DNA from: an uncultured Candidatus Saccharibacteria bacterium | Lineage (GTDB): Bacteria > Patescibacteriota > Minisyncoccia > Phycocordibacterales > UBA9973 | DNA length: 64,000 bases | Direction: 5' to 3' | Assembly: GCA_964563715.1 (NCBI GenBank) | Contig: CAZLXA010000001.1 | Coordinates: 33,613-97,612 of the forward strand | In this document: piece after piece, positions 25,099 to 56,177 of the stretch | How positions within the stretch are numbered: the first letter of the stretch is position 1 | How the letters are laid out: every line of letters begins with the position of its first letter | Translations under genes and position numbers: made by a program | Notes under the pieces: generated by a model | Seen by the model: the letters and a program-made list of their open reading frames with translations, nothing else | Databases searched by the model: none | Told to the model about the DNA's origin: nothing

Positions 25099-25274
25099 TT
25101 ATTTGTTTTTATTTGTTATAGATTAATTGTTTGATTATATTTTTCTCCCAGAGACGTTGAAAATGAGAAAGAAATATAATCAAACTAGAAATCTAACATT
25201 TGACCATATGGTAGCACAATCGTCAACAAAAGTCAAGTCTGTTTTATGACCCTTATAAGTTATAATAAAAAGGT

Positions 25275-38852: not shown

Positions 38853-38951
38853 AATTACGAATTACGAATTACGAATTAAAAAAATACTTGAAACGAAGTT
38901 TCAAGTATTTTTTGTTTCACATCCGTAATTCGTAATTATTAATTCGTAATT
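38853..38951. repeat. Inverted pair of AATTACGAATT-type repeats around a bidirectional terminator hairpin (38878-38914)
   Basis: AAATTACGAATTACGAATTACGAATT ... hairpin ATACTTGAAAC-GAA-GTTTCAAGTAT ... CCGTAATTCGTAATTATTAATTCGTAATTAAT. Confidence 0.65.
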
Positions 38952-40452
38952 AATTTAGGTCCAAACTCCACAATGTTGAGTCTTTTTTATTAGTGAAGAA
39001 TAAGGTATTTTCTGTTTTATCTAAGAATAGATAAGTTCCGTCAACTGGTGTTTCGGTTGTTGAATTAGCCAATGTTGTTTTATTACCAGTCCCAGTATTT
39101 ATTTTTACAAAATAATCATCAAAAGAAACAATTCCTTGATACCAAATATCTGGATATTGATTTCCAGTTATAACACTTGGGATGGCACAATAAATACTAA
39201 TACGGTCAGATGACCAAACACATTTTTCTGGCAAACCATAAGTATCTAAATCTTTGGTGGTATTTGTACTTATATTATAAACACCAAGGCGAGGGCCAGT
39301 TGGGGTCGAAGTGTTATATAAAACCATAGAACCATTTGGGTTAATCATTGTTGTTAGGCCATCTATCCCCCCAAGAATTTTAGTCGTAGTTTTGTTTATT
39401 TGATTTAATGAAAACATACTGCCCTCAACACTATAAGATGGTTTGGTTGTTAAATATATTTTACCAACACTATCCCACTCAGAGAGCCATTCAGTAAAAG
39501 GAGAAGTAAATACTATATCCCTTTTTGTCTCCCCAAATATTCCAACTGTTCCTGTGACGCCACTACTATTTTCTGTTAGATAAAAATATTTTGTTTTATC
39601 AGGAGAAACACTAATGTTTGAAATATTTTGCGGCAAGAATTCTCCTTTTGGTGCACCAAGCGAAGCTACAAAACTACTAATAAGATTATCACTTGAAAGA
39701 TATCTGTAAATAACTGTCTCACCTCCCCTATTAAATAAAGCTTCATAGATACTTGGGATAGTTGAATTAGAAATTTTGTCTTTGTTCTTGGTGTCTAAAA
39801 ACATTTTATAAATGTGACCATTCATTCTCTCAACATAACGGATAGAAGGAGCAGTTTCGAACTGACTTTTTTCTGGACTATCACCAACTTTTGTAGTTTT
39901 TAAGAAAAAAGGAGCAGTTTCAGTATCGATTTGACCTGTTTCTGTAAGATTATTTAATTTTTGAAAATCTTTGATTGCTTGGATTGATTTTTTGCCTAAA
40001 TTTCCATCGGCCACAAGTGGTGGATTAAGAGAAAGACTTTGATTTAAAAAGATTTGAATATCTTTTTTCCCTTCTTTAGTTGTTGAATCTATGACTGTTG
40101 TAATTTCTGTGGGGGCTGGAGTTTCGGTTGTTGTTTCTATTGGTCTTGTATCTTCTAAAAAGGTGGCACCAGCGATAGCAAAGTCGGTAATCTTAGTGAA
40201 ACGTGAATATGTTGATATTATGTTGCCAGGCTCTTGGTTAACAATATTACCGTCACCATTTGTATTATTTGGGTCGAGTTCCCCGTTGTTATTAATACCA
40301 CCAGTACCAAAAGGATTAAAACTTTGATACCAAGGACTTGTGCCATCTGGACTCGTTGTTTTGTCTTTATTAATCCAAAAATAAACTCCGAGGATAATTA
40401 TTCCGGTGGTGATAAAAACTGTTATAAAAAGAATGATTGTTTTTTTTGACAT
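38950..40452 (-). CDS. Membrane-anchored protein with a peptidoglycan-binding (PG_binding_1-like) domain and a C-terminal beta-rich domain; first gene (3'-most) of the T4SS-like locus
   Basis: TM IILFITVFITTGIIILGVYFW, Pro/Thr linker, LVADGNLGKKSIQAIKDFQKLNNLTETGQIDTETA. The track ORF extends to 40542, but the internal start MSKKT (40452) avoids an 86-nt overlap with the upstream gene. Confidence 0.55.
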   Translation of the reverse strand: MSKKTIILFITVFITTGIIILGVYFWINKDKTTSPDGTSPWYQSFNPFGTGGINNNGELDPNNTNGDGNIVNQEPGNIISTYSRFTKITDFAIAGATFLEDTRPIETTTETPAPTEITTVIDSTTKEGKKDIQIFLNQSLSLNPPLVADGNLGKKSIQAIKDFQKLNNLTETGQIDTETAPFFLKTTKVGDSPEKSQFETAPSIRYVERMNGHIYKMFLDTKNKDKISNSTIPSIYEALFNRGGETVIYRYLSSDNLISSFVASLGAPKGEFLPQNISNISVSPDKTKYFYLTENSSGVTGTVGIFGETKRDIVFTSPFTEWLSEWDSVGKIYLTTKPSYSVEGSMFSLNQINKTTTKILGGIDGLTTMINPNGSMVLYNTSTPTGPRLGVYNISTNTTKDLDTYGLPEKCVWSSDRISIYCAIPSVITGNQYPDIWYQGIVSFDDYFVKINTGTGNKTTLANSTTETPVDGTYLFLDKTENTLFFTNKKDSTLWSLDLN

Positions 40453-40456
40453 AAAA

Positions 40457-42115
40457 TTATAGTGAACAATATTTTGGCTCAGGGCAATTTGGATACTTAC
40501 AAGTTTGTTTTCCTCCACCGTACTCAAAATGCCAAGCCTCAAAATTTAACCTTTGAAAACCCGCCTTATCTAATATTTTTTCTATTTCCCCAGAAGCACG
40601 CGTATTTTTGCAGTTATTTACTTTTTTACCATCAAAATAAAAATAAAAATCAACAGCGGAACCAACCCCATGATTACTTAATGCAGGGTATGCATATTTC
40701 TCTCCTAAACCACCAGGATTTTTGTATATGGAATTACACATTACCCTAATTTGATCTTTTGCTGGCCTATAAACAGAGACAACCTTAAAAGAATAATTTC
40801 TATTTGGTATTGAACCCTGAGCAATAAGGGAATCAATCGCGGGTTTTATTTTTTTTAACCCTAATATTACATTACTAGCAGCTGTACAATTTAAACAACC
40901 AGAATTTTTTTCTACATTCGGTATCTTATCAAAATTTTGAGCCAACGATGGAGACATTACACCCGGAGGAGTGCCTGTATAGTCTTTACCATTATTTGTA
41001 TTAGTGCATAATGCCTTGCAAGTTGTTATATCTGTACATAATTTAGTTGTTCCATTACCACCTCCTGTAGATTTGATTTCTTGCACATCCATTCTTATGA
41101 CCTCTTCTTCTATAGCAGCGCTGACTTGATCAATACGGACTCCCCCATTTAATAAGTCCGGATTGATGGTATTTAGTAATGCATATGAGCCGAGAGCAAT
41201 TAAAAGTCCCAAGATGGCAGCCATTATTTTACTTTTGGCTTCCGTTTTCCCAAAAATTGATTCATCTCCCATGTATTGAATTCCACCGAGGACAATCATA
41301 ATTACAGCTAGAGCTCCACAAAGCCCGATAGCAATCAAAAATATAGTATTAAAATATTCACCAATATTATCTGGAGCAAATTTGAAGTTACCAATCGGTG
41401 CGAGAAGTTCATATACTTCATTACCCCCCGTGCCATTATTTTCTGGGTCAATATCTTGTGGGTCAACTGCGAGTTTGAATCTTTGAGAACTAACAGCTTC
41501 ACCCGCTGGGTTACGAACAGTAATGCTTCCATCAATTGCTCCCATAGGGACTGCAACAGTAAGGGTGTTATCAGTTTTTATTGCGGTAGACATATCTGCA
41601 CTTTTTATTCCAAAAAAGACAGCTGAAGTATTTCCAAGGTTAGCTCCTTTTATTGTTATGTTTTCCCCTATCTTAGCTTCAAGGGGAGAAACACTTGTAA
41701 TTGTCGGCTTGTTTATATCAACAATCATTCCCTCTGGAGTTACATTCACTGATTTTTTAATTTGAGGAGTGGTATTTAAAGTAAAATTAAAAGTATATGT
41801 AATACCCCCAGTTAAAACATTCCCTGAATAATAAACCGAAGCGTGGTCTATGACCGTAATATTTCGTGCAGGGACTACTATATTCTGAAGTTGTAAACCT
41901 TCTACTGTAATCGATGTATTGTCTGGAGTGTATGTAGTTTTTATGTTGAATTTATAACCGAAGAGCTTCCCATCATCACTTTGGGTAGGGATAGGGGTAG
42001 CGATTGTCATAGATGGTGTAGGTCCTACAGCCTCGACTTTTTGTATTTTACTAACAGAAAAAAACGGAGTTAAAATTAATGTTATTAAAAAAAGGTATAC
42101 AAATAATTTTTTCAT
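40457..42115 (-). CDS. Secreted IPT/TIG domain, double-TM pilin-like (VirB2/TrbC-like) segment, and C-terminal M15 (VanY-like) peptidoglycan peptidase in one fusion protein
   Basis: Signal peptide. IPT-like PTITSVSPLEAKIGENITIKGANLG...SITVRNPAGE. Two TM helices IFLIAIGLCGALAVIMIVLGGIQYM / IMAAILGLLIALGSYALL. M15 motifs SNHGVGSAVD (SxHxxGxAxD) and EAWHFEY (ExxH). Confidence 0.6.
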   Translation of the reverse strand: MKKLFVYLFLITLILTPFFSVSKIQKVEAVGPTPSMTIATPIPTQSDDGKLFGYKFNIKTTYTPDNTSITVEGLQLQNIVVPARNITVIDHASVYYSGNVLTGGITYTFNFTLNTTPQIKKSVNVTPEGMIVDINKPTITSVSPLEAKIGENITIKGANLGNTSAVFFGIKSADMSTAIKTDNTLTVAVPMGAIDGSITVRNPAGEAVSSQRFKLAVDPQDIDPENNGTGGNEVYELLAPIGNFKFAPDNIGEYFNTIFLIAIGLCGALAVIMIVLGGIQYMGDESIFGKTEAKSKIMAAILGLLIALGSYALLNTINPDLLNGGVRIDQVSAAIEEEVIRMDVQEIKSTGGGNGTTKLCTDITTCKALCTNTNNGKDYTGTPPGVMSPSLAQNFDKIPNVEKNSGCLNCTAASNVILGLKKIKPAIDSLIAQGSIPNRNYSFKVVSVYRPAKDQIRVMCNSIYKNPGGLGEKYAYPALSNHGVGSAVDFYFYFDGKKVNNCKNTRASGEIEKILDKAGFQRLNFEAWHFEYGGGKQTCKYPNCPEPKYCSL

Positions 42116-42116
42116 A

Positions 42117-43112
42117 TTATAAATTTAATTTTAATTGATTATTAATTTTTTGAAATAATTCATTCATATTTTGTATAACTAAACTTATTGTTGCATATCC
42201 CCCACGTGATGTTGGTCGGACTGTGAGTTCGTTTTTCTTTGAGGGGGTTTGAATATTATTACCATTTATTTTCCAATTATAAGTAAAATTAGTTTCATTG
42301 TTTTTTAAAGTTAAAAAGTATGGTTCAGCAATGAGAGTTACTTCATCTTCAAACATATCAGCTTCTTTTTCTAAAGCTTGATTATAAAGTATTCCTTCAG
42401 TTGGGGATTTTTTATAAAAAACTATTTTAGGACTGTAAGTTGGAATTTGTATTGTTTTTTCAGCCGTATAGCGTCCATCAACAGAAGAAGCAGCAACGGT
42501 AATTTCATTTTTTGTATCAAACATACTGTTTTTAAAAATATATGAATTTTTATTATAGCCGGACGCATCTAAAACTGCACTATTATTGTTTTTCCAATTA
42601 TAAGTAATACTTCCACTACCGGATTTTATAGTATCGGTATTTGGAATTGCTACAGCCTTAATTAAGGAACCACTAGATGGAAGAGATTTACCCTTATAAA
42701 AAGGTGGAGTATAACCATTGACTGATTCCCACATAATTTCGATTTCCGAAGGAGTGATAGCGATTCTTTTATTGATTGTCGTCATTGAACCTACCGGAGT
42801 AATAGTGATATCAAAAATATTAGCCGTATTAGGTCCGGAAGCTTTAAATGAATAACTTGTTTTTCCAATTCCAGAGAGGACAGTATTACCAGATGTTTTC
42901 CAAACTATAATTGCTTTATTTAAATCAGTCGCATAACTAGTCAAAGTTATTGTTACATCTTCATATGGAGCAGGATTATTTGGATTAACCTCAACACTCA
43001 ATTCATTATCTTGAACTTCGATTTGCATCTCAGCTAAAGAATTATACGGCCAATTTAAGATGGTCAAAACAAAAATCAAAACTAGAAAAAATTTTATTTT
43101 TATTAATTTCAC
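42117..43112 (-). CDS. Secreted beta-rich protein, hypothetical
   Basis: Signal peptide MKLIKIKFFLVLIFVLTILNWPYNSLA; 331 aa. Confidence 0.45.
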   Translation of the reverse strand: MKLIKIKFFLVLIFVLTILNWPYNSLAEMQIEVQDNELSVEVNPNNPAPYEDVTITLTSYATDLNKAIIVWKTSGNTVLSGIGKTSYSFKASGPNTANIFDITITPVGSMTTINKRIAITPSEIEIMWESVNGYTPPFYKGKSLPSSGSLIKAVAIPNTDTIKSGSGSITYNWKNNNSAVLDASGYNKNSYIFKNSMFDTKNEITVAASSVDGRYTAEKTIQIPTYSPKIVFYKKSPTEGILYNQALEKEADMFEDEVTLIAEPYFLTLKNNETNFTYNWKINGNNIQTPSKKNELTVRPTSRGGYATISLVIQNMNELFQKINNQLKLNL

Positions 43113-43155: not shown

Positions 43156-44991
43156 TTAACCGTTGTTTGCGGCCAATAATTCCCCTTTGGCTTTTTTAAT
43201 CGCTAAAATTTGTGACGGGTCGGAAGTAATGATTTGATCTTCAGTATAGGAGGCAATAGTCTTAATAGCCACATGCTTTAAGCCAGCAAAGAATATTCCC
43301 TCGCCAACATTAGCTTCGAGTAATAAATATTTTTCTTCCTCAGTCAAATTAAATGTTTTTTGTAAAACATCAACGGTTGAAGGAGATTGTTTTAATAGTA
43401 ACTGAATAGAAGAATTGGTCACGATCGGTATACCATAAGCACTTTTCATGAAGTCACCAACATCTTGAGTAATTGTCGCTAAGCCTAAATAATATTTTCG
43501 GCCTCTTTTTGCAATAGAGTAAAGAAAAGATGCTGTATCTTCGGATTTCATCATCCACCAAGCTTCATCAACAACAAGTAAGCGTTTCTTGATATTTTTA
43601 CGAACGGCATTCCAAATATAATGAGTAATGATATACATAGCAATTGGTTTTAATTCATCTTCCATGTCGCGAACTGAAAATACAATAAACTTACGATTAA
43701 TATCAATATTTGAAGGTTGGTTGAGGAATGAAGACCATGAACCATGAGTATATTTGGTTAGTCTTTGCATTAATGATTCACTTCCCTCCATCCCAGAGAG
43801 AATAACTTCAAAGTCCGATAACATTGGCGGTTCAATATTTCTAAAATCAGAATCAGCGGTAATATCTTTAAGAGCATAAGTTTCAGTAATAGCTGTATCA
43901 ATAATAGAATCCTCTTCAGGAGTTAAGCCTCCCAACATAATTCTAAATAATCCAACTAAGCTAATAGTATTAGAGCGTAAAACATCGGCTGGGGTTTCAT
44001 CGCCTGTTGGAATTGGTAAATCAAATGGATTAATGTGATGGTCCGATGATAGAGCAATATTAAAACATCTTCCACCAATAGCTTCGGCTAAATATTCATA
44101 TTCTCGTTCAGGGTCAATAACAATAACTTCAGTATCAAACATCAAAGTTCGAATAATTTCTAATTTTGTGGCATATGATTTACCAGCTCCGGATGTGGCG
44201 AAAGTAATAGAATTGTAATTTGGAAGTGAAAATCGGTCAAATAAAATAAGACTTGAGTTGTGACGATTTACTCCATAAAGAATTCCTTTATCTTCTGTTA
44301 AGTCAAAAGAAACGAATGGAAAAATACTTGAAAGTGGTTCAGTGTTTAATTTTTGATGAATGCCTAAAATGTCTGTTCCAAGTGGAATGACGCTTTTAAA
44401 GCCTTCATTTTGTTGAAATAGAGCTGGTTTTAGATAAATTAATTTTGATTCGAGTAACGATTTAATTTCATTTTCAATTTTAAATAAATCATTATCATCA
44501 TTAGCATAAACTGTAATATAAAGACCAACATCAAACATTTTTTCTTGGGCTTGCATTAAATTGTCTCGCAAATCCTCTAAATCTTTATAGGCCGTGTCTA
44601 GCATTGGATCACGAACAAGACCTTTTGATTCACGGATAGCAATTTGACTTTGGACTTCAGCCACTTTTTTCTGGAAAGACCTCAATATTTCAGCCGTTTC
44701 AATTGGGTGGATAAAAATAGAAACATCGAAAACTTTATCCAAATTGATAATTGGTGAAAACCAATTATCAGAAAGATAGCGAGGATATGAAATAACAAAA
44801 AATGTTCGGACGATTTTATCTCCCAAGTTAAGTGATTTAGGTGTTATCTGTAAAGCAGACGGAGCAATGATGTCTTGGAGTTCTAGAGTTGCCGCTTTAT
44901 AGACTTCATTCGGCAAAATTGGCATCATGCCACTTCTATTATTAGTGTCATTTGTTTTCCCTTTTCCAAATAATGATGAAAGTATACTCAT
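43156..44991 (-). CDS. VirB4/TrbE/CagE-family T4SS ATPase, C-terminal (ATPase) part
   Basis: Walker A FATSGAGKSYA, Walker B LLVVDEAWWMM (DEAW hallmark), and the DPEREY motif. Confidence 0.75.
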   Translation of the reverse strand: MSILSSLFGKGKTNDTNNRSGMMPILPNEVYKAATLELQDIIAPSALQITPKSLNLGDKIVRTFFVISYPRYLSDNWFSPIINLDKVFDVSIFIHPIETAEILRSFQKKVAEVQSQIAIRESKGLVRDPMLDTAYKDLEDLRDNLMQAQEKMFDVGLYITVYANDDNDLFKIENEIKSLLESKLIYLKPALFQQNEGFKSVIPLGTDILGIHQKLNTEPLSSIFPFVSFDLTEDKGILYGVNRHNSSLILFDRFSLPNYNSITFATSGAGKSYATKLEIIRTLMFDTEVIVIDPEREYEYLAEAIGGRCFNIALSSDHHINPFDLPIPTGDETPADVLRSNTISLVGLFRIMLGGLTPEEDSIIDTAITETYALKDITADSDFRNIEPPMLSDFEVILSGMEGSESLMQRLTKYTHGSWSSFLNQPSNIDINRKFIVFSVRDMEDELKPIAMYIITHYIWNAVRKNIKKRLLVVDEAWWMMKSEDTASFLYSIAKRGRKYYLGLATITQDVGDFMKSAYGIPIVTNSSIQLLLKQSPSTVDVLQKTFNLTEEEKYLLLEANVGEGIFFAGLKHVAIKTIASYTEDQIITSDPSQILAIKKAKGELLAANNG

Positions 44992-45638
44992 TTTAGTTTT
45001 ATACCCTGACTAATATCCCCAGGATTGAATGTTTTATAAAAAAGTTCGACAACTTGGTCAGTAGTTAATTCTGTTGTTCTGATGCCGACTCGTCCTAGAC
45101 CACTGATGATAACTCCAACCCGTTGGTCTAATTGAGTTCTTTTTTCTTCAAATGAAGCTAAATCCATTGCTTTTTTAGTATTTTCAATTTGTTTTTTTTG
45201 CGATCCCCCACCAAGCAAACTATCAACCATACCATCACTTGATTTAATAATTGTTGGACTGTAAGGCACAACAATAAAAAATGTTTTGGTCATAATATTA
45301 ACTTCATCAGTAAAAGATTTAATAAAATCAATATATTCTTTGGTTTGAATTTTTAGAAGTGGTTCAACTTGGGCTTTGAGTCTTTCTTCGAGCGATAAAA
45401 GATAATGTCTAATATCTAAACGGCGAGACTGCATACATATTTGAGTTGGAAAATCGAGTCCATTAATGAAATTTTGAAATTCATTAATAATGGCGGCTTG
45501 TTCATCGGAGGATTTTAAAGATAAATTTAAAGATGAAGCAAGTAATACCGCCCGAAGACCACCGTCTTTTAAAACGATGATACCATTTCGCACTTCTTTA
45601 ATTGGAACGAATTCTTGTGAACTTTTTGCACTAATCAT
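44988..45638 (-). CDS. VirB4-family N-terminal domain encoded as a separate ORF (ATGA stop/start overlap with the ATPase part)
   Basis: IKEVRNGIIVLKDGGLRAVLLASSLNLSLKSSDEQAAIINEFQNFIN resembles the N-terminal region of Gram-positive-type VirB4 homologues; 216 + 611 aa add up to full VirB4 length. Confidence 0.55.
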   Translation of the reverse strand: MISAKSSQEFVPIKEVRNGIIVLKDGGLRAVLLASSLNLSLKSSDEQAAIINEFQNFINGLDFPTQICMQSRRLDIRHYLLSLEERLKAQVEPLLKIQTKEYIDFIKSFTDEVNIMTKTFFIVVPYSPTIIKSSDGMVDSLLGGGSQKKQIENTKKAMDLASFEEKRTQLDQRVGVIISGLGRVGIRTTELTTDQVVELFYKTFNPGDISQGIKLK

Positions 45639-46256: not shown

Positions 46257-46607
46257 TTATGATTTTGAAGTTTTTTGAATTGCTCCAATTATTCTTAATA
46301 TTTCTTCACAATCAAATATAAGTGTATCAGATTGTTGCTTGTTTAGAAAACCACTATCTGTTAAAAGGTGTAGCCAGTAAAGAGTCTCCCTTGCTTCTTT
46401 ATAAGAAATACTTATTTTTGAGATAAAATCATTTTTTGATTGTGCCCCAATTGCTTCTTCTATGTTTGCACCAATTGATGTTCCAGAACGAATTAATTGC
46501 TTTGAAAGAATGAATTCTTTTTTGTCTTTAGTTAGTTCCTGATATATTGTTATAATTTTAAGACTAAAATTATAACTTTTTTCCTTAATGATATTATCTG
46601 ATTTCAT
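46257..46607 (-). CDS. Four-helix-bundle protein (TIGR02436 family; the 23S rRNA intervening-sequence protein family)
   Basis: LIRSGTSIGANIEEAIGAQSKNDFISKISISYKEARETLYWLHLL is the family signature. Confidence 0.8.
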   Translation of the reverse strand: MKSDNIIKEKSYNFSLKIITIYQELTKDKKEFILSKQLIRSGTSIGANIEEAIGAQSKNDFISKISISYKEARETLYWLHLLTDSGFLNKQQSDTLIFDCEEILRIIGAIQKTSKS

Positions 46608-47353: not shown

Positions 47354-50300
47354 TTAATGATGAACACCATCGTTCCCGTGTCCTACTTTTTTTGTATCTC
47401 CACCACTATGCGATTCTGGGAGTTCAATTTTCATATCTTTTACTGCATCCTTAAATGTACTTTTTAGATCTGTTAAGAAATCACCTTCTATTTTTACAGT
47501 ACCGTGACTCAATCCTGAGCTTTTAAGTATTCCACCTCGCACACCAGTGGCAACTGCTGCAATTAAACCAACTGGTATTTTTGTAAATACACTCGCTCTT
47601 TTGTCTACAGAAGCTTCTGAAAGTTTTCTTAGATCCCATGTTCCTGTATTTGCTTTTGAAAATACTCGAGTAAAAGCATTAATACCAGCTGAAGCTTTAT
47701 TGATTTCATCATCAAATTTATCAATTGCTTTTGATTTAGCAAGATCTTTTACTTCTTTCTTTTGTTCCAAGCTTAAATCTTTAAGTTTACCTGTATTTGA
47801 GTCTACTACATTTAGTTTTGGATCAACTGCAAGGTTTCTAGGATCATTTCTATAGGCTCTCTCCGCATCATCTAAGTGTTTTGAGTAGTTTTCTTTTCCA
47901 ACATTATCCTGAACAATTTTTTGTTGTTCCCCCGAAAGCTCACTCCACTTAAAGCCCTTAAATCCAGCTTTTTCAATATCTGCATCTGTGTGAGCTCTAC
48001 TTCTGTCTACTTCATTTGTTTTATTTTGTGCAACATTTAGTTTGGAACCCAGTGCAGTAAATGGATTAAGTGTGGTAGATTTTATACCTGCCCCAGCTGC
48101 ATAATTTTTCCAGTCAGGTTTAGCCCCAGATCTTTGGTTTGGAGGAGTTGAATTCCATTTTTCTAAATCTTTGTTAAATTGAATTTTTGTATTACTACGT
48201 TTTGTTGCCCCGTCTGTTTTGGATAGTGCAGATAACCCTCCACCTATTACTTTTCTTCCAATCAATGCTCCACCTAATGCTGCACCCCCAAGGGCTATAC
48301 CACCAGCTGCGGCGAGTCCATTTGTAATTGATTGGCCCATTTTTCCAGACATATCTTTTGCTATATCTTTGGCTTTCATTAAGAGAACCATGATAAATAT
48401 AAATGGAACGATAACAGAAATAACAAAAGTCATACCATCATTAACATCATTTGCTTTTACCAAACTTAATCCTTTTTCTAGGAAAGCAATAATTAAATAC
48501 ATAAAGAATATAAATATTGGAGCCAAAAATGCCAGTTTGAGGGTTTCTGGCCACCATTTTTTCCAACCAACCATTTCCATGTCTTGTAAAGATGGAACCG
48601 TGTAACTAAAAAAGACAAAAGGCGAGAAGATCATAGCAAACCATAAACCTATAACTCTAGTAACAAATATCAATCCCACAGATAAAAATACGATTATTCC
48701 AACAATATTTACAGCTGTTGCAAGTAAAGTAATTAGGATAAATGCACCAACGCCTAAGCTCCCTTGTGTATCTTCTGCTGTACTTGTTTGATTTGTGACT
48801 TTATCTTTTATTACAACTGCTTTTGTCCCATTAATAATAAGATTTTGAGGATTTACTTTATTAACAATAGCAGCCGAAAGGGGGATCTCTCCATTTGGTC
48901 CAATTTTTAGGCCGGCTGTCCCAGCGGTACTATTCTGGGTAATTTTTATTGAATCTGAGTTATAAAAAACACGGGCTAAGATATTTGAAGCATCAATAAT
49001 TACTTGGGTGGTAAATAAACTAAAATTAATAAGGAGCCCAATGATAATTACATTGATAATCATTTCTTTAGTTTTAACACTATGAAGATTTAAAATAGTT
49101 CCGAAGGCAATATAAAGTAGTATGAAAATAAAGAACATATTACAAAAATCTCGAACAATACCCCAGCCTTCTACCACGAAAGGAGTCCGATATGATTCAT
49201 CTTGCACAGAGTAATGAAAAGTAAAATCAAGAAAAGTTCCAGCCAGGGCAAATACATAGGATGTTGGAACAAAAAAGACATAATAAAACATTTGAGCCAT
49301 ACAACCAGCAAAAGAGCCATCGATTGGATGAGCAAAAACACACAAAGGAAGTTGGTCAGAACCAGTTGGTGTCCCTGCAGTAGTTTGCATTGTCGTTTTT
49401 GAAAGACAATCACTTACTACTATTCCAGAACCACTTGATTCTTCGTTTTGAGCCCTTGCATCTCTAACATTTTTACACGAGTCTTCGGTTGGAAAATTTG
49501 CAGAATGTTCTACTGAACCATTTGTGTTTGTTAGATCAAAATAATAAACCGTTGTTGTTGAAGAAGAACCCGCGGTTTGATCTGTTCCAGTTGCTGTTCC
49601 TAGGCTCCATGATGTTTCATCACAATCTCCTCCTAACCCTTTACACTTAAAAATAAAATGATCTGATTCATCTGTTTTATTAGAGGTGTAGTGAGTAATT
49701 ATTTGTCCAGTTGAACTTGTTCTGATATAGAAATCAACAATGATATCACAATCTCCTCCAGAACAAGATGTTTCACCAGTAGTTAAAGCAAAAGATAAAT
49801 TATCTGAATTTATTGTGCTACGAGGAATTGATAAAACTGTTGTATTGGTTGTTCCACTGGCTTGGATATTTAGTTCAGAAAGTAATTGCCCTTGACATCC
49901 AGTGGTGTTTATATATAGAGTTGCATTGTCTGGTCTTATTGGTTTGGTTGATGTGGGGGGGGTGAATAAAACATTTGTTATTTTACAGTCAGTCTGAGCT
50001 GGAAGTTCAGTTCCGGTAGTACTTTTTAAAAGCCATGGGTCTGTACACCCAGTAGTCTTACATTCATAAGCCAAAGATTCATCAGATTGAGATGTGGTTA
50101 AAATACTAGTGCCTGCGTCATTTAAAATTTCAAGTTTAATTCTTATTTGATTACAATCACCACGCTCACAGGTTTTTTCACCAGTATGAAAAGTAAATGA
50201 AAAATTATCTTCTGCTATTCTTTGGACTGGAAGCTCTGGAGAACCAAAAGCTACAGATGGCCCAGGAAAAGCTAAGATATTAACTCTAGCTAACTTTCCA

Positions 50301-50515
50301 ACACAACCAGTTGTTCCGACACTGTAGATAACTTCTTCTGGTTTTGGGGTATTGGTTGAATCTGGAAGAGGCTTAGGGCTAGTAAAAGATTCAGTTAAAA
50401 TTACACAATTCGCTGCTTCAGCTTTTTCAATTTTCGAACCATCATTAACACTAAAAGGCGCAAACAGTTGCACAATGATTGTCAGTATTAATATGTATGG
50501 CAAAAATTTTTTCAT
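47354..50515 (-). CDS. Large polytopic membrane protein, VirB6/TrbL-like core with a duplicated Cys-rich N-terminal ectodomain and Gly-rich C-terminal region
   Basis: Signal peptide; two ~150-aa Cys-containing repeats (TGC.G.L...N...; GD CD); at least 6 TM helices between residues ~400 and 700; GLAAAGGIALGGAALGGALIG. Confidence 0.5.
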   Translation of the reverse strand: MKKFLPYILILTIIVQLFAPFSVNDGSKIEKAEAANCVILTESFTSPKPLPDSTNTPKPEEVIYSVGTTGCVGKLARVNILAFPGPSVAFGSPELPVQRIAEDNFSFTFHTGEKTCERGDCNQIRIKLEILNDAGTSILTTSQSDESLAYECKTTGCTDPWLLKSTTGTELPAQTDCKITNVLFTPPTSTKPIRPDNATLYINTTGCQGQLLSELNIQASGTTNTTVLSIPRSTINSDNLSFALTTGETSCSGGDCDIIVDFYIRTSSTGQIITHYTSNKTDESDHFIFKCKGLGGDCDETSWSLGTATGTDQTAGSSSTTTVYYFDLTNTNGSVEHSANFPTEDSCKNVRDARAQNEESSGSGIVVSDCLSKTTMQTTAGTPTGSDQLPLCVFAHPIDGSFAGCMAQMFYYVFFVPTSYVFALAGTFLDFTFHYSVQDESYRTPFVVEGWGIVRDFCNMFFIFILLYIAFGTILNLHSVKTKEMIINVIIIGLLINFSLFTTQVIIDASNILARVFYNSDSIKITQNSTAGTAGLKIGPNGEIPLSAAIVNKVNPQNLIINGTKAVVIKDKVTNQTSTAEDTQGSLGVGAFILITLLATAVNIVGIIVFLSVGLIFVTRVIGLWFAMIFSPFVFFSYTVPSLQDMEMVGWKKWWPETLKLAFLAPIFIFFMYLIIAFLEKGLSLVKANDVNDGMTFVISVIVPFIFIMVLLMKAKDIAKDMSGKMGQSITNGLAAAGGIALGGAALGGALIGRKVIGGGLSALSKTDGATKRSNTKIQFNKDLEKWNSTPPNQRSGAKPDWKNYAAGAGIKSTTLNPFTALGSKLNVAQNKTNEVDRSRAHTDADIEKAGFKGFKWSELSGEQQKIVQDNVGKENYSKHLDDAERAYRNDPRNLAVDPKLNVVDSNTGKLKDLSLEQKKEVKDLAKSKAIDKFDDEINKASAGINAFTRVFSKANTGTWDLRKLSEASVDKRASVFTKIPVGLIAAVATGVRGGILKSSGLSHGTVKIEGDFLTDLKSTFKDAVKDMKIELPESHSGGDTKKVGHGNDGVHH

Positions 50516-50579: not shown

Positions 50580-52907
50580 TTACCACAACTCCAATACCCT
50601 CTCTACTCCATCTAAGTATACTCCCTCTTTCCATTTACAACCTGCCCTTAGGGCAGCTTTAACCTTATCACTTCCTGCTCCACCAGAGGAGTAACCATAA
50701 AGATTACTGTTAATGGCAGCACACTTAAATGGTCTATCATTTAAAGAGTCACAGTCATCTCCTTCTTTTCCCCACACTGTTACCCCTTCTGGTCTTGCAG
50801 TAAAAGCATCTGTTACGAGTTTTCCACCGTATAAATACCCGGAAATATACTTACAGCCTTCACCCCCCCAATGATCTTCACCATTTATTGTCACTGTTCC
50901 AACCCCTCCTTCTAGAAGATTGTAATTTAAATATGGATTTTCGTTTCCAAAAGGAACGGAGCCAACTACTGCGGGTCTATACCATGGATTTCCATTTTGA
51001 ACCCAACCTCCATCCCCTCCTTTTGCTTTTACCTCTGCAACTTCTTTGTAGCAAGTATTAATTAATCCATCGGTTTGTGCAATAAAATTTTTATATTGGT
51101 CGATTTCACTATAGACAGTAATGATGTCTTCTTCCGTTTTAAGAGTGGAAGATATCAAATAAAACTTACGAAGAAGTTCAGCGAGTTTTGCTTTTTCTGT
51201 GTCTGTGAAAACAAGAGGGTTTTGTTCAATTAATAAACATTTATTTTCTGGTATCTCAATTTCTATTGGTGGCTCGGGAATCGTAGTATCATCATCTGGA
51301 ATAATAATTTCATCATCGCCAGGCGGAGGAAGTGAACCAGAAACAGTTAGGGTTGTCCAGCCACTACAATTATTTTCTTCATTTGATTCTTCGACTGTCC
51401 CGACATCAGAAATAGATTTTTTATCTGCACAAGCTCTAATTTTATAAACACCGGCTGAAGAGAAAGTATATGAGACAGATGTAACATTACTTTTCTGAGC
51501 AGTTAGAGTTGGAACAACAGCAGTTATTTCAACCCCGTTTGTGGTATTAATATCTCCAGTTAAAGCGACAGCTTTTTTGATTAAAGATATTTTATTAAGA
51601 ATTTTAACAAATATGTTTTTAATATTTAATTTTGAAACAGTTGTATTATCGCCATCTTCAACATCAATATTACTATCTTTAATAATTTGGAAAAAACTGA
51701 CGAAATTAAATCCAGTTGAACCATCCCCAATGTTTGTAATAATTGTTGTTAAGTTTACTGGGACATTTATTGACGCTGTTGTTGGTGTGACACTACTTGC
51801 AGTTAAATCAGGAGTTCCATCTTCTTCATTTCCACCCGCACCCAGTTTTTCCGAATAATGTTCTGGGTCATAGGAAAGAGGATTCGTCGCATCACCATCG
51901 GTATGACACTCTGGGTCAGAAGTATCTATTAAACCGTCATTATCATTATCAAGAGTGTCACTACATTGGCGAGTGTTGCCTCCCTCGCCTGGGAATACTG
52001 CTTCAGAATAGTGGTTTGGAACATAATCTTTATTTAAATCTCCATCAATGTGACATCCTGAATCTGAAGCATCTATCAATCCATCATTATCATTATCTAG
52101 TGTATCTTCACATTGTCTTTTATAATCTCCTCCCCCAGGAAATGTTGTTTCTGAATAATGTTCAGGGTCGTATGAGTCTGGATTGGTAGGGTCACCATCA
52201 GTATGACACTCTGGGTCAGAAGTATCTGTTAAACCATCATTATCATTATCAAGAGTGTCACTACATTGTCTTTTATAATCTCCTCCTCCCCCAGGAAATG
52301 TTGTTTCTGAATAATGTTCAGGGTCGTATGAGTCTGGATTGGTAGGGTCACCATCAGTATGACACTCTGGGTCAGAGGTATCTATTAAACCGTCATTATC
52401 ATTATCAAGAGTGTCACTACATTGGCGAGTGAAATCACCATTTCCACCATTTCCACCTCCATTATTACCATTCGTACCAAAGACACCGCCTATTAAATTA
52501 AAGAAAGAATTCCAAAAAGTATTTGCTCCATTATTATTTGTAATTATTTCTCCTAGTTCTCCGCCTCCCATATCATTTCCAGCAAAGCCAAAAATTTCAT
52601 CCCCTTGTTTTGACTTAACGACGATTGGATTATTGTCGGCATTTGTTCCAAACCTTGTAACATTGTCGCCTTTTTCTAAGTCTTCCCCTGCTTGAGCAAG
52701 TGTTCGGACAGAGTTTTCATCAATTTTACTAATATTTTTTTCATTTTCTGAAGTAATTAATGGGGCAAAAATTCTAGCAATACTATTTGAAGTTTTTACT
52801 CCAAACATGTCGCGATTTTTGAATAATAAATAACTAACAACCACTAGGAAAATAATAACAATGATTGTTATGATGAGGGCTTTACTTTTTCGCGGTTTAT
52901 TTTCCAT
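50580..52907 (-). CDS. Membrane-anchored secreted protein with four tandem ~48-aa thrombospondin-type-3-like Ca-binding repeats (DTLDNDNDGLIDTSDPECHTDGDPTNPDSYDPEHYSE)
   Basis: N-terminal TM; repeats are near-identical at the DNA level (51880-52440); C-terminal Cys-containing globular domain. Confidence 0.55.
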   Translation of the reverse strand: MENKPRKSKALIITIIVIIFLVVVSYLLFKNRDMFGVKTSNSIARIFAPLITSENEKNISKIDENSVRTLAQAGEDLEKGDNVTRFGTNADNNPIVVKSKQGDEIFGFAGNDMGGGELGEIITNNNGANTFWNSFFNLIGGVFGTNGNNGGGNGGNGDFTRQCSDTLDNDNDGLIDTSDPECHTDGDPTNPDSYDPEHYSETTFPGGGGDYKRQCSDTLDNDNDGLTDTSDPECHTDGDPTNPDSYDPEHYSETTFPGGGDYKRQCEDTLDNDNDGLIDASDSGCHIDGDLNKDYVPNHYSEAVFPGEGGNTRQCSDTLDNDNDGLIDTSDPECHTDGDATNPLSYDPEHYSEKLGAGGNEEDGTPDLTASSVTPTTASINVPVNLTTIITNIGDGSTGFNFVSFFQIIKDSNIDVEDGDNTTVSKLNIKNIFVKILNKISLIKKAVALTGDINTTNGVEITAVVPTLTAQKSNVTSVSYTFSSAGVYKIRACADKKSISDVGTVEESNEENNCSGWTTLTVSGSLPPPGDDEIIIPDDDTTIPEPPIEIEIPENKCLLIEQNPLVFTDTEKAKLAELLRKFYLISSTLKTEEDIITVYSEIDQYKNFIAQTDGLINTCYKEVAEVKAKGGDGGWVQNGNPWYRPAVVGSVPFGNENPYLNYNLLEGGVGTVTINGEDHWGGEGCKYISGYLYGGKLVTDAFTARPEGVTVWGKEGDDCDSLNDRPFKCAAINSNLYGYSSGGAGSDKVKAALRAGCKWKEGVYLDGVERVLELW

Positions 52908-52919
52908 GATAATTTTTTA

Positions 52920-55900
52920 TTAATTAGTTATTGTTTTTTCGAGCACCCAAGTACAGTCGTAGATTAGATATGGATCAGGGGATGGATCTGTTCCATTATT
53001 TGGTTGGTAATGTGAATATTGAGAACAGGCTGTTTTTCTTTGTGATTCTGTTGCTCCGGCTAGTTTAGCTGTATTGTCTTGCTCTTTACAACTTTTAATC
53101 GAAGAGCCGTATATAACTTTTGATGTTTGGTAATTAGGATTTGATTCACAGTGAGCCTCGATAATGGTTGTCTTCTGACAATCAGGATCTTTGCGGTCGA
53201 TTAAGCCATCTAAATCATCATCAAGATTATTATTACATCTCTCACCAACTGAGTCATTCATTATATCTGATTCATCATAATATAGAATATCTTCTTCTTC
53301 TAAACACTCCGCATATTCTGTTTTATATTCGGCCTCGGTCATAATATCTTTTTCACAAGCAATTCGTTTGGCTAAACAGTATTCCCCTAAATCATCTTGA
53401 TTTACTTCAGATGAGACATTGATTCTATTCATACAATCATCACTTTCTGCCAAACATTTTCTTTTTGTTTCTTCTTCTAATATTTTAACTAAATTTGCAT
53501 CACGACGGTCCTGTGCCGTTTTGATAATGATACTAACTTGTTTTTTAATTGCTTCTAATTTACCAATATTGGCTTTAGCTTGTGAAATATCACTACGATA
53601 TTGATTCATAACCGCTGTAATATCTTCATCGTATGCTACGATATCTCTTGTTAAGCTTAAACCTTCTTCTGCCATCGGAATATATGATGAATTTAGAGTT
53701 CTAGTTGTTGAGTCTTCTGTTTCATTATATTCTCTAGTCATATTAGAAAAATATGTAGTATTCATCATTTTATCAAATACTTCATAGAAATTATTAAACA
53801 TGTAATTATTAACCATGTATAAATAATTATCAACCCAAGTTTGAATTTTACCCTCCTCGTTATTATTATGAATTTCATTTCCAGTATTTAAACCTAGGGG
53901 CCAACCATAATAAAGATGTGGTTTATTTTTGTCATCTTCTTGGCCTTTTGCCAGCCAGCTCCAAACCTTTGGATTGTCTTTAAATATATTTTTCCAGGCC
54001 TCATATTCTTTATCTCCAGGTCTGGAAATTGTGAATTTAGTACTATCTCTTTCTAAAAACCCACCCTGGTTGTATGTTCCCACCATTGTTCCAACCCAAT
54101 CAGTATATAGACTTTCGTTATCTCCAACATTTGATTTGTAATTTGGATTTGGTCCTGGAATACAGTAATCAAGTTCTCCGAGTTTTGGCATGACATTGGG
54201 TAAAAATTGTAATGATTCTGTGGCCGCGACAATATAATCTTTTTGGACTTGAATTACTCCTCTTTTCTTTATAGGATTTGCTTGGTCTTTTTTCCAGTTT
54301 TGCCATTCACTGCCATTCCAAAAAGCTCGATCACCCAAAGCCCAGCCATTGTAACCATTTAATATTATTTTTGTTTTACCTGGATTTGCGACAGTGTAAT
54401 AAACATTTGAAGTTTGATTTACATTATTATCTAAATCTGACCCATTGTTTTGGCTGCTATAATTTACAGGAGCCAAATCAGGATATAAACTTTGATTTGT
54501 ATTTGTTAAATTGATATTTTCATTAGCATTCCAAGTTCCTAATTTTACAGGATTATCATATATATATGTATTACCAAGATCTCGAGTTAAATCAAAACCA
54601 CTTGAATATGCTCCATTATTATTATAAACACTTGATCCACCAAGACTGCCGTTTGTTGAATTGGTCCAATCCATGTTTTGTTCGTCATATATGTATTGTT
54701 CTGAAGACAAACCAGAAAGACCATTACTTTGAAGCTTTGAAAGTAAAATTGAAAAAACAGCGTTTAGGGACTCATTTATTGTGTCAGCTAATTCAAGCTG
54801 GCGCACCGGAGAGGTGATGTAAGCACTCATTTGATCTTTAATTAAACTTCCAGGAGTAACGATTTCCTTATCAACACAAACATCAAAACCCGAATCTGTT
54901 TTGTTTTTCTGATAAACATTATATTGTAAAACAGTAATTGCGTCTTGGCCTGGCATTTCTCCTAAATCTGGATCAATATATGGTTCACTATATATCTGTA
55001 CAACACCAGGTAGTTTCCCCATTCTATCTGGTGTACCTGCGGCTAATTCACTATATGGTACATCATTTGTTTTAGCAACACCGTTTTTATCAAATATTTG
55101 ATACATTGTACATCTTTTTTGACTCAAAAAACCATTATTTTGCAAAACCTCGGCTTTGGTGTTGGTTGTTTGACTGTTAATATCGTCAGCTAAATATTGA
55201 CTTGCTCTCATTGTAAAACCAAGAGGGTTATTTTGGTCTCTTTGTGTGAAGGCCAACCAGCCATCCCAACCCCCGGTTGAAAAATCATTTGAAAATGCAA
55301 TGTTTGCATCTTGGGCTCTCTGCATAGTGGTTCTTTCATCGTTGACGGTGTAATATGAATTTGGGTCTGTTATAAAAAATGATAAATCAGAAGTTAAATT
55401 ATTCAAGGCATTCGTTCCACTATTAAAAAGTCCTCCAGAGCGGTAGCCCCTGATGACTGATTGAGAGAAGGCTGTTCCATATGGATATGCACTATTTTGA
55501 TTGGTTAATTGATCGATGCCCGTTTCAAGGACATTTCTTTCTATACCGGTAGTTAGTGAGGTAATATTTTGGACATAGAGTGGATTACCACTAAAACCGG
55601 TATTAATCCAGCTTACAGCACTGCGTGTAAGGGCGGTCAGTTGATTTTTAGCAAGTGTTGTTGCTATGCCATTAAAACACCCTTCTAAATTATCTTTTGC
55701 TTGAGTTGCAGCCATTTCTTGAGTTTTGAGCCTTAGAGCTTCCCCGTCTTTGGTTTCTGTGATTTCCTTACAGTCAATCCCTTTATCTACACCAGTAGTT
55801 CCATCGTTGATTTCTGGGGTCACACCAGCAGCGGTAATAATAATTTTTTCACCCGCTACACACTGTTTTTTAGCCTGGTCTAGTATTACTTGTAATGCTT

Positions 55901-56177
55901 TGTTGGTTATTTTCTTTTTCCCAATTCTGTCCATCAAAACTGAAACTCTATTAACAACCCCTGTACAACCAACAACTTGCATCGCAACATCGGAATTAAC
56001 TACATCAGTAATTTTAAATTTGTATTTATCGTAAGTTTTACCACTTTTATTTGGTTTTTCCCAATCAATTTGGCTAGCGGCATTGACCGTTGTTGGTAAA
56101 ATAATTTGTAGAAAAGAAAAAACAAAGGTAAAAATTATAACCCCGCTAATTATTTTTGTTATAATTTGTTTTTTCAT
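52920..56177 (-). CDS. Very large secreted protein (1085 aa), hypothetical; one TSP3-like DDDLDGLIDRKDPDC motif near the C-terminus
   Basis: Signal peptide MKKQIITKIISGVIIFTFVFSFLQIILPTTVNA; Asn/Ser/Thr/Gly/Tyr-rich. Confidence 0.5.
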   Translation of the reverse strand: MKKQIITKIISGVIIFTFVFSFLQIILPTTVNAASQIDWEKPNKSGKTYDKYKFKITDVVNSDVAMQVVGCTGVVNRVSVLMDRIGKKKITNKALQVILDQAKKQCVAGEKIIITAAGVTPEINDGTTGVDKGIDCKEITETKDGEALRLKTQEMAATQAKDNLEGCFNGIATTLAKNQLTALTRSAVSWINTGFSGNPLYVQNITSLTTGIERNVLETGIDQLTNQNSAYPYGTAFSQSVIRGYRSGGLFNSGTNALNNLTSDLSFFITDPNSYYTVNDERTTMQRAQDANIAFSNDFSTGGWDGWLAFTQRDQNNPLGFTMRASQYLADDINSQTTNTKAEVLQNNGFLSQKRCTMYQIFDKNGVAKTNDVPYSELAAGTPDRMGKLPGVVQIYSEPYIDPDLGEMPGQDAITVLQYNVYQKNKTDSGFDVCVDKEIVTPGSLIKDQMSAYITSPVRQLELADTINESLNAVFSILLSKLQSNGLSGLSSEQYIYDEQNMDWTNSTNGSLGGSSVYNNNGAYSSGFDLTRDLGNTYIYDNPVKLGTWNANENINLTNTNQSLYPDLAPVNYSSQNNGSDLDNNVNQTSNVYYTVANPGKTKIILNGYNGWALGDRAFWNGSEWQNWKKDQANPIKKRGVIQVQKDYIVAATESLQFLPNVMPKLGELDYCIPGPNPNYKSNVGDNESLYTDWVGTMVGTYNQGGFLERDSTKFTISRPGDKEYEAWKNIFKDNPKVWSWLAKGQEDDKNKPHLYYGWPLGLNTGNEIHNNNEEGKIQTWVDNYLYMVNNYMFNNFYEVFDKMMNTTYFSNMTREYNETEDSTTRTLNSSYIPMAEEGLSLTRDIVAYDEDITAVMNQYRSDISQAKANIGKLEAIKKQVSIIIKTAQDRRDANLVKILEEETKRKCLAESDDCMNRINVSSEVNQDDLGEYCLAKRIACEKDIMTEAEYKTEYAECLEEEDILYYDESDIMNDSVGERCNNNLDDDLDGLIDRKDPDCQKTTIIEAHCESNPNYQTSKVIYGSSIKSCKEQDNTAKLAGATESQRKTACSQYSHYQPNNGTDPSPDPYLIYDCTWVLEKTITN

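Follow-up and report, generated by a model that had tools for sequence, protein, structure and literature searches.

In a 64-kb window (the whole stretch of DNA that was analysed, from contig CAZLXA010000001.1) of the genome of an uncultured, ultrasmall bacterium (Paceibacteria) of the Candidate Phyla Radiation (CPR, or Patescibacteria), one gene of a type IV secretion system (T4SS) operon encodes a protein of 552 amino acids (aa) whose parts are, in order, a signal peptide, a variable N-terminal region (the head) that includes an IPT/TIG domain, a two-helix hairpin, a linker, and an M15B zinc peptidase (the tail). When the sequences of its relatives are compared, the exchangeability of the head and the tail around a conserved hairpin emerges as the property that defines this protein, and it was not apparent from the single sequence. 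Taking the evidence together, we consider it likely that the protein is a T4SS-docked, surface-exposed subunit that processes peptidoglycan, and in which a VirB2-like carrier holds two exchangeable ectodomains.

The exchange can be followed between close relatives. With respect to the locus L010, protein identity was 100% for PrgI, ~95% for VirB4, 97% for the 331-aa protein p331, and 92% for PGB, the protein encoded directly downstream of the fusion gene; for the core of the fusion protein (aa 235-337) it was 93/96. At the DNA level, identity is 97.0% in the upstream flank, as far as approximately codon 7, 91.6% in the core, and 97.5% in the downstream flank, counted from the stop codon; across aa ~8-234 and aa ~338-552 no similarity was detectable. 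The tail encoded in L010 is a YkuD domain, where the window has a VanY domain, and its head is also unrelated. The same pattern was observed for L011, which carries an NlpC tail, and the DNA homology to both loci ends at aa ~337. In the protein P0002, the core and the tail are 99% identical to those of the window and the head is unrelated, i.e. only the head has been swapped. Among the relatives, 44 head clusters pair freely with the tail classes, a single head cluster being found with up to 10 of them (191 proteins), and the tail class differs in 58 of the 89 pairs whose cores are at least 90% identical. From these sequence comparisons, the conserved hairpin is a carrier for two cassettes, the head and the tail, which recombine independently of each other. 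Through this exchange of cassettes, the outer portions of the subunit are replaced within very short evolutionary times, a behaviour that marks proteins of a cell-cell interface.

A conserved carrier followed by a recombining and sharply bounded C-terminal enzyme is also found in polymorphic toxins, and the enzyme classes described below overlap those of known effectors that target peptidoglycan. The protein could accordingly be seen as an antibacterial effector of this type, with a conserved N-terminal delivery handle and a variable C-terminal enzyme that is released to kill competitors. The defining trait of such toxins is, however, a downstream immunity gene that co-varies with the enzyme, and no such gene was found: PGB starts 4 nt past the stop codon of the fusion gene, is the downstream neighbour for all the tail classes, and is 97.5% identical in nucleotides across the VanY-to-YkuD swap of L010. 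Besides, the head varies too, and the gene is a fixed member of a T4SS structural operon. Membership in the classical polymorphic toxins is ruled out by the lack of a co-varying immunity gene, and a toxin-like effector in the broader sense seems to us very improbable.

Fusion of this kind is the norm in the lineage: in 80 Paceibacteria genomes the gene is found at a single, fixed place in the T4SS operon near oriC. A scan of species-representative genomes revealed hairpin relatives in 397 species-level genomes, whose informative titles were mostly those of Paceibacteria, Nomurabacteria or Parcubacteria. For the comparison of loci, 80 loci from species-level genomes were used. The gene order PrgI / TraC-N / VirB4 / p331 / fusion / PGB is invariant in those in which the contig reaches far enough; p331 is directly upstream of the fusion gene in every one of these, and also in the loci L004-L009, and PGB is directly 3' of it in nearly all 80. 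Within L004-L009, five homologues with five different tail classes share the exact operon slot of the window gene. The tails of the 80 loci comprise 18 VanY, 23 SLT/lysozyme-type, 8 YkuD, 7 NlpC/P60, 7 HxH and 5 unkA modules, and 12 that were unclassified; tail-less forms are almost absent, a rare example being P0134, of 167 aa. A preliminary description of this DNA, made from the window alone, had considered the fusion of a pilin-like module to a peptidase unusual and had asked whether other CPR genomes keep it; it was kept in 80/80 loci, and is no oddity: a large family of Paceibacteria has it as its fixed architecture.

The best 120 homologues share a core of ~100 aa, which is preceded by 40-457 aa of variable N-terminal sequence and followed by a C-terminal module of 155-250 aa. 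The C-terminal modules fall into at least 10 classes, i.e. VanY, YkuD L,D-transpeptidase, NlpC/P60, several SLT/lysozyme types, a group with an H-x7-D...HxH motif, and unknowns. No sequence match in the PDB was obtained for the HxH and unkA classes; by their motifs, the HxH tails may be of the LAS type. An exhaustive profile search yielded 32,862 representative clusters in the wider hairpin superfamily, and the close sub-family includes 290 clusters at 50% identity, nearly all of 300-620 aa with the hairpin embedded. A second open reading frame (ORF) with a hairpin core was observed near the first one in 2 of the 80 loci: in L081 (6917..9346), a YkuD-tailed copy is followed by the PGB gene and then by an SLT-tailed copy, and in L077 (5902..7394) a short copy of 202 aa comes directly after the first. 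Occasional duplication of the hairpin gene could supply donor cassettes; within the 64-kb window neither a second pilin-core gene nor silent or donor cassettes were found.

The same 552-aa ORF is present, without any difference, in three independent SRA assemblies, and full-length relatives with the same architecture (P0002, P0006, P0010) were recovered in addition to the 80 loci. A frameshift or an assembly artefact joining separate genes, which the preliminary description had considered, is ruled out by these observations. The database labels of the relatives are either 'D-alanyl-D-alanine carboxypeptidase family protein' or 'VirB2 component (pilin)', and the first of these NCBI labels would fit a housekeeping peptidoglycan carboxypeptidase that merely lies beside T4SS genes. 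Nevertheless, the hairpin belongs to T4SS pilin-like families, the architecture and the slot are maintained in all the loci, and the enzyme class is not conserved, as such a role would require. With the three assemblies, the 80 loci and the comparison with L010, a housekeeping enzyme or an artefact is effectively refuted, and we give it almost no credence.

The modules of the protein were identified by Pfam, by family profiles, and by structure prediction with AlphaFold (AF2) followed by Foldseek searches, and the three that had been proposed (IPT/TIG, a VirB2-like double transmembrane (TM) segment and an M15 peptidase) proved correct. With the 552-aa sequence alone as a query, Pfam reports TIG at aa 137-200 (E=1.7e-6, 28.3 bits, cut-off 20.9), T4SS_pilin (PF18895) at aa 249-308 (E=1.7e-4, 22.1 bits, cut-off 26.6), and VanY (PF02557) at aa 438-532 (E=1.5e-3, 18.7-21.7 bits, cut-off 25). 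Of the profile searches that had been suggested, the one for TIG thus succeeds on the single sequence, and those for M15 (VanY) and TrbC stay below the cut-off or are weak. Since only TIG passes its curated cut-off in this way, the hairpin and the tail were tested at the family level. The hydropathy profile contains exactly three hydrophobic segments: the N-terminal signal peptide (aa 1-23) and two helices (aa ~254-279 and 296-314). The existence of two helices in addition to a separate signal peptide rules out that the central segment is a simple signal-anchor, and the predicted model likewise has two long helices (251-282 and 287-317), along with folded TIG and tail domains. The signal-peptide region is a helix (2-19) in the AF2 model, and a putative VEA/VG cleavage site follows from the -3/-1 rule.

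The N-terminal third had been described as an IPT-like beta-sandwich behind a signal peptide, and this holds for the signal peptide and for aa 135-215. The NCBIfam profile CoaZ_rpt_PGGG also matches the IPT/TIG region (32.9 bits, cut-off 30), which has a predicted local distance difference test score (pLDDT) of ~90; the best Foldseek matches of the full model are the IPT/TIG domains of SGBP-B, CGTase and EBF3 (E ~1e-4). The profile score of this domain is higher than the curated threshold, and its predicted fold is a beta-sandwich of the Ig-like type. The description does not extend to residues 30-134 of the head, which are beta-rich and have a pLDDT <50. The head probably serves as a binding or targeting module.

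For the hairpin, 45 diverse, non-redundant orthologous cores were used. All 45 match PF18895 (best E 2.3e-11), the isolated core of the query scoring 25.6 bits against the cut-off of 26.6, and 43 of them match NF045849 over nearly the whole profile (best E 4.8e-8). On the basis of these profiles, the hairpin can firmly be placed in the CPR/monoderm pilin-like families PF18895 and NF045849. It shows the profile match, the two helices with a polar loop and a signal peptide, and the location in a T4SS locus that are found in PF18895-family pilins; their small stand-alone size (~80-150 aa) is not shared, the hairpin accounting for ~100 of the 552 aa. The loop QYMGDESIFGKTEAKS has near-invariant columns at Q280, Y281, M282, G283, E285, S286, F288, G289, K290, T291, A293 and K294. 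In the AlphaFold model the helices have a pLDDT of ~75, and residues 328-354, in the linker region, a pLDDT <50. Helix 1 is predicted to run from outside to inside, given the signal peptide upstream, and the loop to be cytoplasmic, given this topology.

The two helices had been assigned specifically to the VirB2/TrbC type. The hairpin itself stood, whereas direct homology to these pilins is weakly supported. The TrbC/VirB2 profile PF04956 gives E=0.17 with the query, and matches 26 of the 45 cores at E<=0.01 (best 1.3e-4); when the core was aligned by hhalign with a profile of nine plasmid VirB2/TrbC proteins, the hairpins were in register over 57 columns with 32% identity, E 0.009 and a probability of 4.5%. 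A relation to classical VirB2 is plausible on these alignments. Because NF045849, the pilin-like family from integrative and conjugative elements (ICEs) of Mycoplasma, matches better than classical VirB2, it is suggested that the hairpin is native to monoderm T4SSs and was not borrowed from diderm systems. Proteins with several hairpins were noticed outside the window (P0121, P0124, P0126, P0128, P0122, P0123): in the hairpin superfamily, one polypeptide can contain 4-17 of them in tandem; P0121, of 1775 aa, has 17 hairpins and ~34 TM helices, and P0123 has two hairpins and an SLT3-like tail. The existence of these covalently concatenated hairpins suggests that hairpins pack side by side.

The tail was analysed with a profile built from 72 VanY-tailed relatives, of which 63 carry a precomputed PF02557 match. 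Against PDB sequences, this profile retrieved YodJ (4ox3, E=2.7e-14), VanY (5hnm, 4.1e-14) and LdcB (4ox5, 7.6e-10). The motifs SNHGVGSAVD and EAWHFEY, which had been recognized in the preliminary description, are present as quoted (S480-D489 and E526-A-W-H529-FEY). In the 72 relatives, conservation reaches 90% or more at R450, S480, H482, G485, A487, D489, E526, W528 and H529, and H482, D489, H529, E526 and R450 align with the equivalent residues of YodJ and VanY. A model of the tail alone has a pLDDT of 87.5 and a predicted template modelling score of 0.83 (the AlphaFold models give the tail a pLDDT of 90-97), and the top 50 Foldseek matches of the tail model are all LAS/M15 proteins, i.e. 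VanX (3e-5), LdcB, VanXYc, VanY, phage L-Ala-D-Glu peptidases and Hedgehog-N. By its profile, its zinc and catalytic residues and its predicted LAS fold, the tail is assigned to the M15B peptidases. It contains 10 cysteines, which fit an extracytoplasmic location.

The fusion gene is located among T4SS genes (Table 1). Upstream are p331, for which no significant Pfam or NCBIfam match was found, the genes for a VirB4 ATPase, and that for a PrgI/VirB3-like protein. VirB4 is split into a 216-aa and a 611-aa protein, whose genes (43156..45638) overlap by 4 nt, and the same split was observed in all the syntenic loci examined. A polytopic protein of 1053 aa gave no Pfam match; its position and synteny, together with its hydrophobic core, suggest the role of VirB6. 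The N-terminal ectodomain of this protein has two Cys-bearing repeats that are weakly similar to the commonest head class, that of P0002 (pairwise E ~1e-3 for both repeats); as far as this similarity goes, the external parts of the VirB6-position protein and the heads of the fusion proteins may share a domain type. For PGB, the mechanically called ORF (38950..40542) begins with a TTG at 40542 and shares 86 nt with the 3' end of the fusion gene; judging from the homologous loci and the 500-aa length of the orthologues, translation probably starts at the ATG at 40452. The other side of the T4SS cluster carries jag, yidC, yidD, rnpA, rpmH, dnaA, dnaN and PBP1A (31068-33578), and from the neighbours jag to dnaA and dnaN the locus is chromosomal and adjacent to oriC, a location that has been described for T4SSs of Patescibacteria (PMC12102498). 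A search of the window's large ORFs yielded neither a relaxase nor a coupling protein. The proposed role of the peptidase as VirB1 analogue of a T4SS agrees with the location of the gene inside the operon, and with the SLT and NlpC/P60 modules that occupy the same slot elsewhere.

We propose that the signal peptide would carry the N-terminus across the membrane and that the two conserved helices would insert as a hairpin with its short, nearly invariant loop in the cytoplasm; since two TM helices come after the signal peptide, the head and the M15B tail would both be located beyond the cell membrane, in the zone of the wall. In the conjugative pilins of the F- and T-pilus structures, both termini of the hairpin are outside the membrane, as predicted here, and an exported tail is supported by the fact that the substrates of peptidoglycan enzymes exist only outside the membrane. 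By its hairpin, in the manner of the pilin family, the protein would dock to the membrane complex of the T4SS (PrgI/VirB3, the split VirB4 and the VirB6-like protein), and the tail would process stem peptides of the peptidoglycan, as a carboxypeptidase or endopeptidase of the VanY/LdcB type, at the place where the machine crosses the wall. The function of VirB1 would in this way be covalently built into a VirB2-like protein. The topology, the docking to the T4SS, the enzymatic activity and the wall that serves as substrate are what we infer from the features described above.

Several observations weigh against this proposal. The query alone is under the Pfam cut-offs for T4SS_pilin and VanY, so that both assignments rest on family profiles; the core profile found no pilin among PDB sequences, and the hhalign link between the hairpin and classical VirB2 has the low probability already given. 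About 30% of the tail classes are without an assigned function. Enzymes of the VanY/LdcB type are usually carboxypeptidases, which trim stem peptides and do not open holes, and the YkuD tails are transpeptidases, so a simple hole-punching role does not fit all the tail classes. In addition, action on the own wall is sterically the simplest, because the enzyme is tethered beside it and the genome encodes PBP1A.

This last point is the basis of a different view, in which the hairpin is a T4SS-docked anchor that stays in the membrane and the enzyme, as a VirB1 analogue, remodels the peptidoglycan of its own cell for T4SS assembly; the diversity of cassettes would then stem from non-orthologous replacement of a neutral kind, or would serve to escape phages whose receptors are the exposed domains. 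The predicted topology, the PBP1A of the organism and the lack of an immunity gene accompanying the tails are in agreement with it, as are TagX, a protein with the same design of two TM helices and a VanY-superfamily domain that acts on the wall of its producer (PMC5061870), and the VirB1 analogues of Gram-positive bacteria, which are membrane-anchored and carry domains as varied as SLT, CHAP, NlpC/P60 and LytM (PMC12857230, PMC12102498). Nonetheless, strains whose flanks are 97% identical would be expected to have the same wall chemistry, yet the enzyme class and the head are both replaced between them, and the tail class changes in most pairs of near-identical cores (58/89). A plain anchor, moreover, needs no strongly conserved hairpin of the pilin family with a nearly invariant loop. 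We consider an exclusively own-wall enzyme possible, though doubtful. For the T4SS-docked subunit that we favour, a function in the contact with another cell (on the wall of a host or partner), over pure housekeeping of the own wall, comes close to an even chance; we lean towards it because both ectodomains are replaced between 97%-identical flanks and the chemistry of the enzyme changes with them.

A bolder version of a partner-facing role is that of an armed pilus or conduit. In it, the hairpin would polymerise after extraction by VirB4, every pilin subunit would bear a partner-binding head and a wall enzyme, both exchangeable, and the resulting filament or short tube, coated with heads and tails, would attach to the host wall and breach, open or edit it, while cassette swapping would tune the host range or evade host inhibitors. 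The hairpin belongs to the pilin-like families PF18895 and NF045849, this is the only pilin-core protein of the T4SS locus in the window, and its predicted outward termini, as in conjugative pilins, could allow the ectodomains to decorate the surface of a filament; the tandem poly-hairpin proteins suggest packing side by side. Hypervariability is typical of host-interaction proteins, and the repertoire of tails (amidase/NlpC, lysozyme/SLT, M15, YkuD) mirrors that of antibacterial effectors that target peptidoglycan, e.g. Tlde1a (PMC9638812). A possible pilus, or pilus-like conduit, has also been raised for CPR T4SSs, speculatively, in reviews (PMC12857230). On the other hand, a rough geometric estimate indicates that a pilus lattice of the conjugative type would leave very little room for two ~200-aa domains on each subunit, a filament has never been seen for these organisms, an immunity gene is absent, and neither a PDB match to a pilin nor an hhalign probability to VirB2 above 4.5% was obtained. 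We therefore regard an armed filament as rather unlikely. If it existed, cassette recombination would set or shift the host range and evade host counter-measures, and the gene would determine host specificity for a CPR secretion system that is essential and whose function is unexplained.

Table 1. Location of the features of the fusion gene and of other genes in the window (positions are those of the 64-kb stretch).
Feature	Position	Strand	Remarks
Fusion gene, ORF	40457..42115	(-)	ATG start, 552 aa
Signal peptide, aa 1-29	42029..42115	(-)	MKK and hydrophobic core; VEA/VG signal-peptidase-type site near aa 29 (putative)
Head cassette, aa 30-234	41414..42028	(-)	varies between strains; predicted extracytoplasmic
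IPT/TIG beta-sandwich, aa 135-215, inside the head	41471..41713	(-)	Pfam, NCBIfam, AF2, Foldseek
Conserved pilin-like core, aa 235-337	41105..41413	(-)	YxLLAPIG motif, helix 1, loop QYMGDESIFGKTEAKS, helix 2, LLNTINPDLL motif
TM helix 1, aa ~254-279	41279..41356	(-)	Kyte-Doolittle peak 3.05; AF2 helix 251-282; predicted out-to-in
Loop QYMGDESIFGKTEAKS, aa 280-295	41231..41278	(-)	short, nearly invariant; predicted cytoplasmic
TM helix 2, aa ~296-314	41174..41230	(-)	hydropathy; AF2 helix 287-317; predicted in-to-out
Flexible linker, aa 338-354	41054..41104	(-)	core/tail recombination boundary
Tail cassette, aa 355-552	40460..41053	(-)	Cys-rich M15B (VanY/LdcB-type) zinc peptidase domain; predicted extracytoplasmic
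R450, YRP motif	40766..40768	(-)	conserved arginine of VanX/VanY-type enzymes; aligns with the GYRS arginine of YodJ
SxHxxGxAxD motif, S480-D489	40649..40678	(-)	H482 and D489, Zn ligands
ExxH motif	40529..40540	(-)	E526, catalytic base; H529, third Zn ligand
PGB, TM-anchored, PG_binding_1 domain	38950..40452	(-)	4-nt gap downstream of the fusion gene; Pfam 32.8 bits, cut-off 23
p331, 331 aa, secreted or anchored	42117..43112	(-)	directly upstream of the fusion gene, 1-nt gap
VirB4-type ATPase, 611 aa, CD1110 / MPF-FATA type	43156..44991	(-)	NF045971 374 bits, cut-off 325; P-loop_TraG 1.6e-23
Separate N-terminal VirB4/TraC-like protein, 216 aa	44988..45638	(-)	NCBIfam N-terminal VirB4 matches; PF26593 TraC-like annotation in syntenic loci
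PrgI/VirB3-like 2-TM protein, 135 aa	45801..46208	(-)	Pfam PrgI 36.9 bits, cut-off 27
23S rRNA-intervening-sequence protein, four-helix bundle	46257..46607	(-)	PF05635, 98 bits; between PrgI and the VirB6-like region
Polytopic protein, 1053 aa, repeated Cys-containing ectodomain	47354..50515	(-)	extended-VirB6 position
775-aa protein, secreted or anchored	50580..52907	(-)	four tandem ~45-aa repeats RQCSDTLDNDNDGLIDTSDPECHTDGDPTNPDSYDPEHYSE, CARDB domain
1085-aa protein	52920..56177	(-)	no Pfam match; 775-aa gene lies between this gene and the VirB6-like gene
UvrD/PcrA-type helicase, 1028 aa, with intein	58228..61314	(-)	Intein_splicing aa 276-631, 46 bits, cut-off 35.8
1253-aa ORF	20262..24020	(-)	no Pfam match
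PilB/GspE-type T2SSE ATPase	25269..26972	(+)	387 bits

Some other features of the window were observed (Table 1). The PF05635 gene is found at the same place in L008 and L009 and is absent from L004, L006 and L007. The repeats RQCSDTLDNDNDGLIDTSDPECHTDGDPTNPDSYDPEHYSE of the 775-aa protein carry acidic motifs of the DxDxDG type, which are suggestive of calcium binding. The intein of the helicase is delimited by the junctions ...GDTDQ/CLRRG... and ...VTHN/CIYTW... (the slash marks the junction). Type IV pilus genes, represented by the T2SSE ATPase, near which the 1253-aa ORF is located, are ~15-20 kb or less away from the T4SS locus.

The T4SS ranks among the most conserved machines of CPR/Patescibacteria; in the sole species tested it is essential, and its role has been described as 'completely unknown' (PMC11665869). 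A survey of Patescibacteria T4SSs published in 2025 counted the VirB2-like proteins encoded near virB4 using PF18895, and from the observation that most genomes containing VirB2 lack VirB1 it was concluded that pilus biogenesis is apparently independent of VirB1 (PMC12102498). This conclusion on the missing VirB1 needs to be revised, given that a large Paceibacteria clade builds the wall enzyme into the VirB2-like protein. Pilin-enzyme fusions are not mentioned in the text of the survey or in the supplementary files consulted (PMC12102498), nor in the other paper that cites PF18895, and in the literature searched no description was found of the co-occurrence of pilin and enzyme, of the fixed slot, or of the exchange of two cassettes; the co-occurrence of the two domains is already recorded in precomputed Pfam. 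The fusion ties the CPR T4SS physically to peptidoglycan, and the behaviour of the cassettes makes this unexplained system more approachable by experiment.

Among known proteins, the closest counterparts of the tail are the M15B enzymes LdcB, DacB, YodJ and VanY (4ox3, 4ox5, 4mph, 5hnm), which have the same zinc ligands, catalytic Glu and Arg, and fold (profile E 2.7e-14 to 1e-9). In contrast with them, the query comes from a divergent sub-clade that has an additional Cys-rich subdomain on the N-terminal side and a Cys-rich extension at the C-terminus, and the TM-scores are 0.45-0.52. The enzymes of the VirB1 type (VirB1 of A. tumefaciens; PrgK, TraG of pIP501 and Orf14 in Gram-positive bacteria) are likewise dedicated wall enzymes encoded in a T4SS locus (PMC12857230, PMC12102498); those of Gram-positive bacteria are membrane-anchored, and domains of the SLT and NlpC/P60/CHAP types occur in the orthologous slot of the sister genomes. 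In the nine classical MPF-T loci compared, virB1 always adjoins virB2. As in the VirB1 class, a peptidoglycan enzyme is conserved here within the T4SS operon, but the window copy, with its M15B tail, does not have the transglycosylase/muramidase or CHAP/NlpC chemistry of that class, and the YkuD transpeptidase tails of other copies are not a known VirB1 chemistry. Furthermore, VirB1-type enzymes are soluble or have a single anchor, and none of them is fused to a hairpin of the pilin family.

TagX, which is essential for the biogenesis of Acinetobacter's type VI secretion system (T6SS), also has two TM helices followed by a VanY-superfamily zinc peptidase and is encoded in a secretion cluster (PMC5061870). 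It differs from the fusion protein in that it belongs to a T6SS of a diderm bacterium, its TM segments are not of the pilin family, it is devoid of a variable head, and cassette exchange has not been reported for it. Polymorphic toxins share with the fusion family a conserved carrier and sharply delimited, recombining C-terminal enzymes with an overlapping repertoire, which includes Tlde1a, a T6SS effector with the LD-transpeptidase fold (PMC9638812). In the fusion family, however, there is no cognate immunity gene, the carrier is a structural-type component of a T4SS, and the N-terminal head recombines as well.

With regard to the hairpin, the pilin-like conjugal transfer protein of Mycoplasma ICEs (Mbov_0395 family, NF045849), to which 43 of the 45 cores match, belongs to a monoderm T4SS of the MPF-FATA type whose VirB4 family is shared with the window; unlike the fusion protein, it is a stand-alone hairpin of ~80 aa, in wall-less bacteria, without an enzyme or a head. 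The PF18895 pilins of Candidatus Southlakia epibionticum have the same hairpin family and are encoded next to a CPR-type VirB4 (PMC12102498, PMC12857230). In this bacterium the array of VirB2-like pilins is essential, and the variation among copies or strains has been proposed as an adaptation to the host (PMC12102498, PMC12857230). The Southlakia pilins are small, stand-alone proteins encoded in multi-gene arrays, whereas in the loci described here there is one gene per locus and the hairpin lies between a head of ~200 aa and an enzyme of ~200 aa; the former vary as arrays, and the fusion family varies by cassette replacement.

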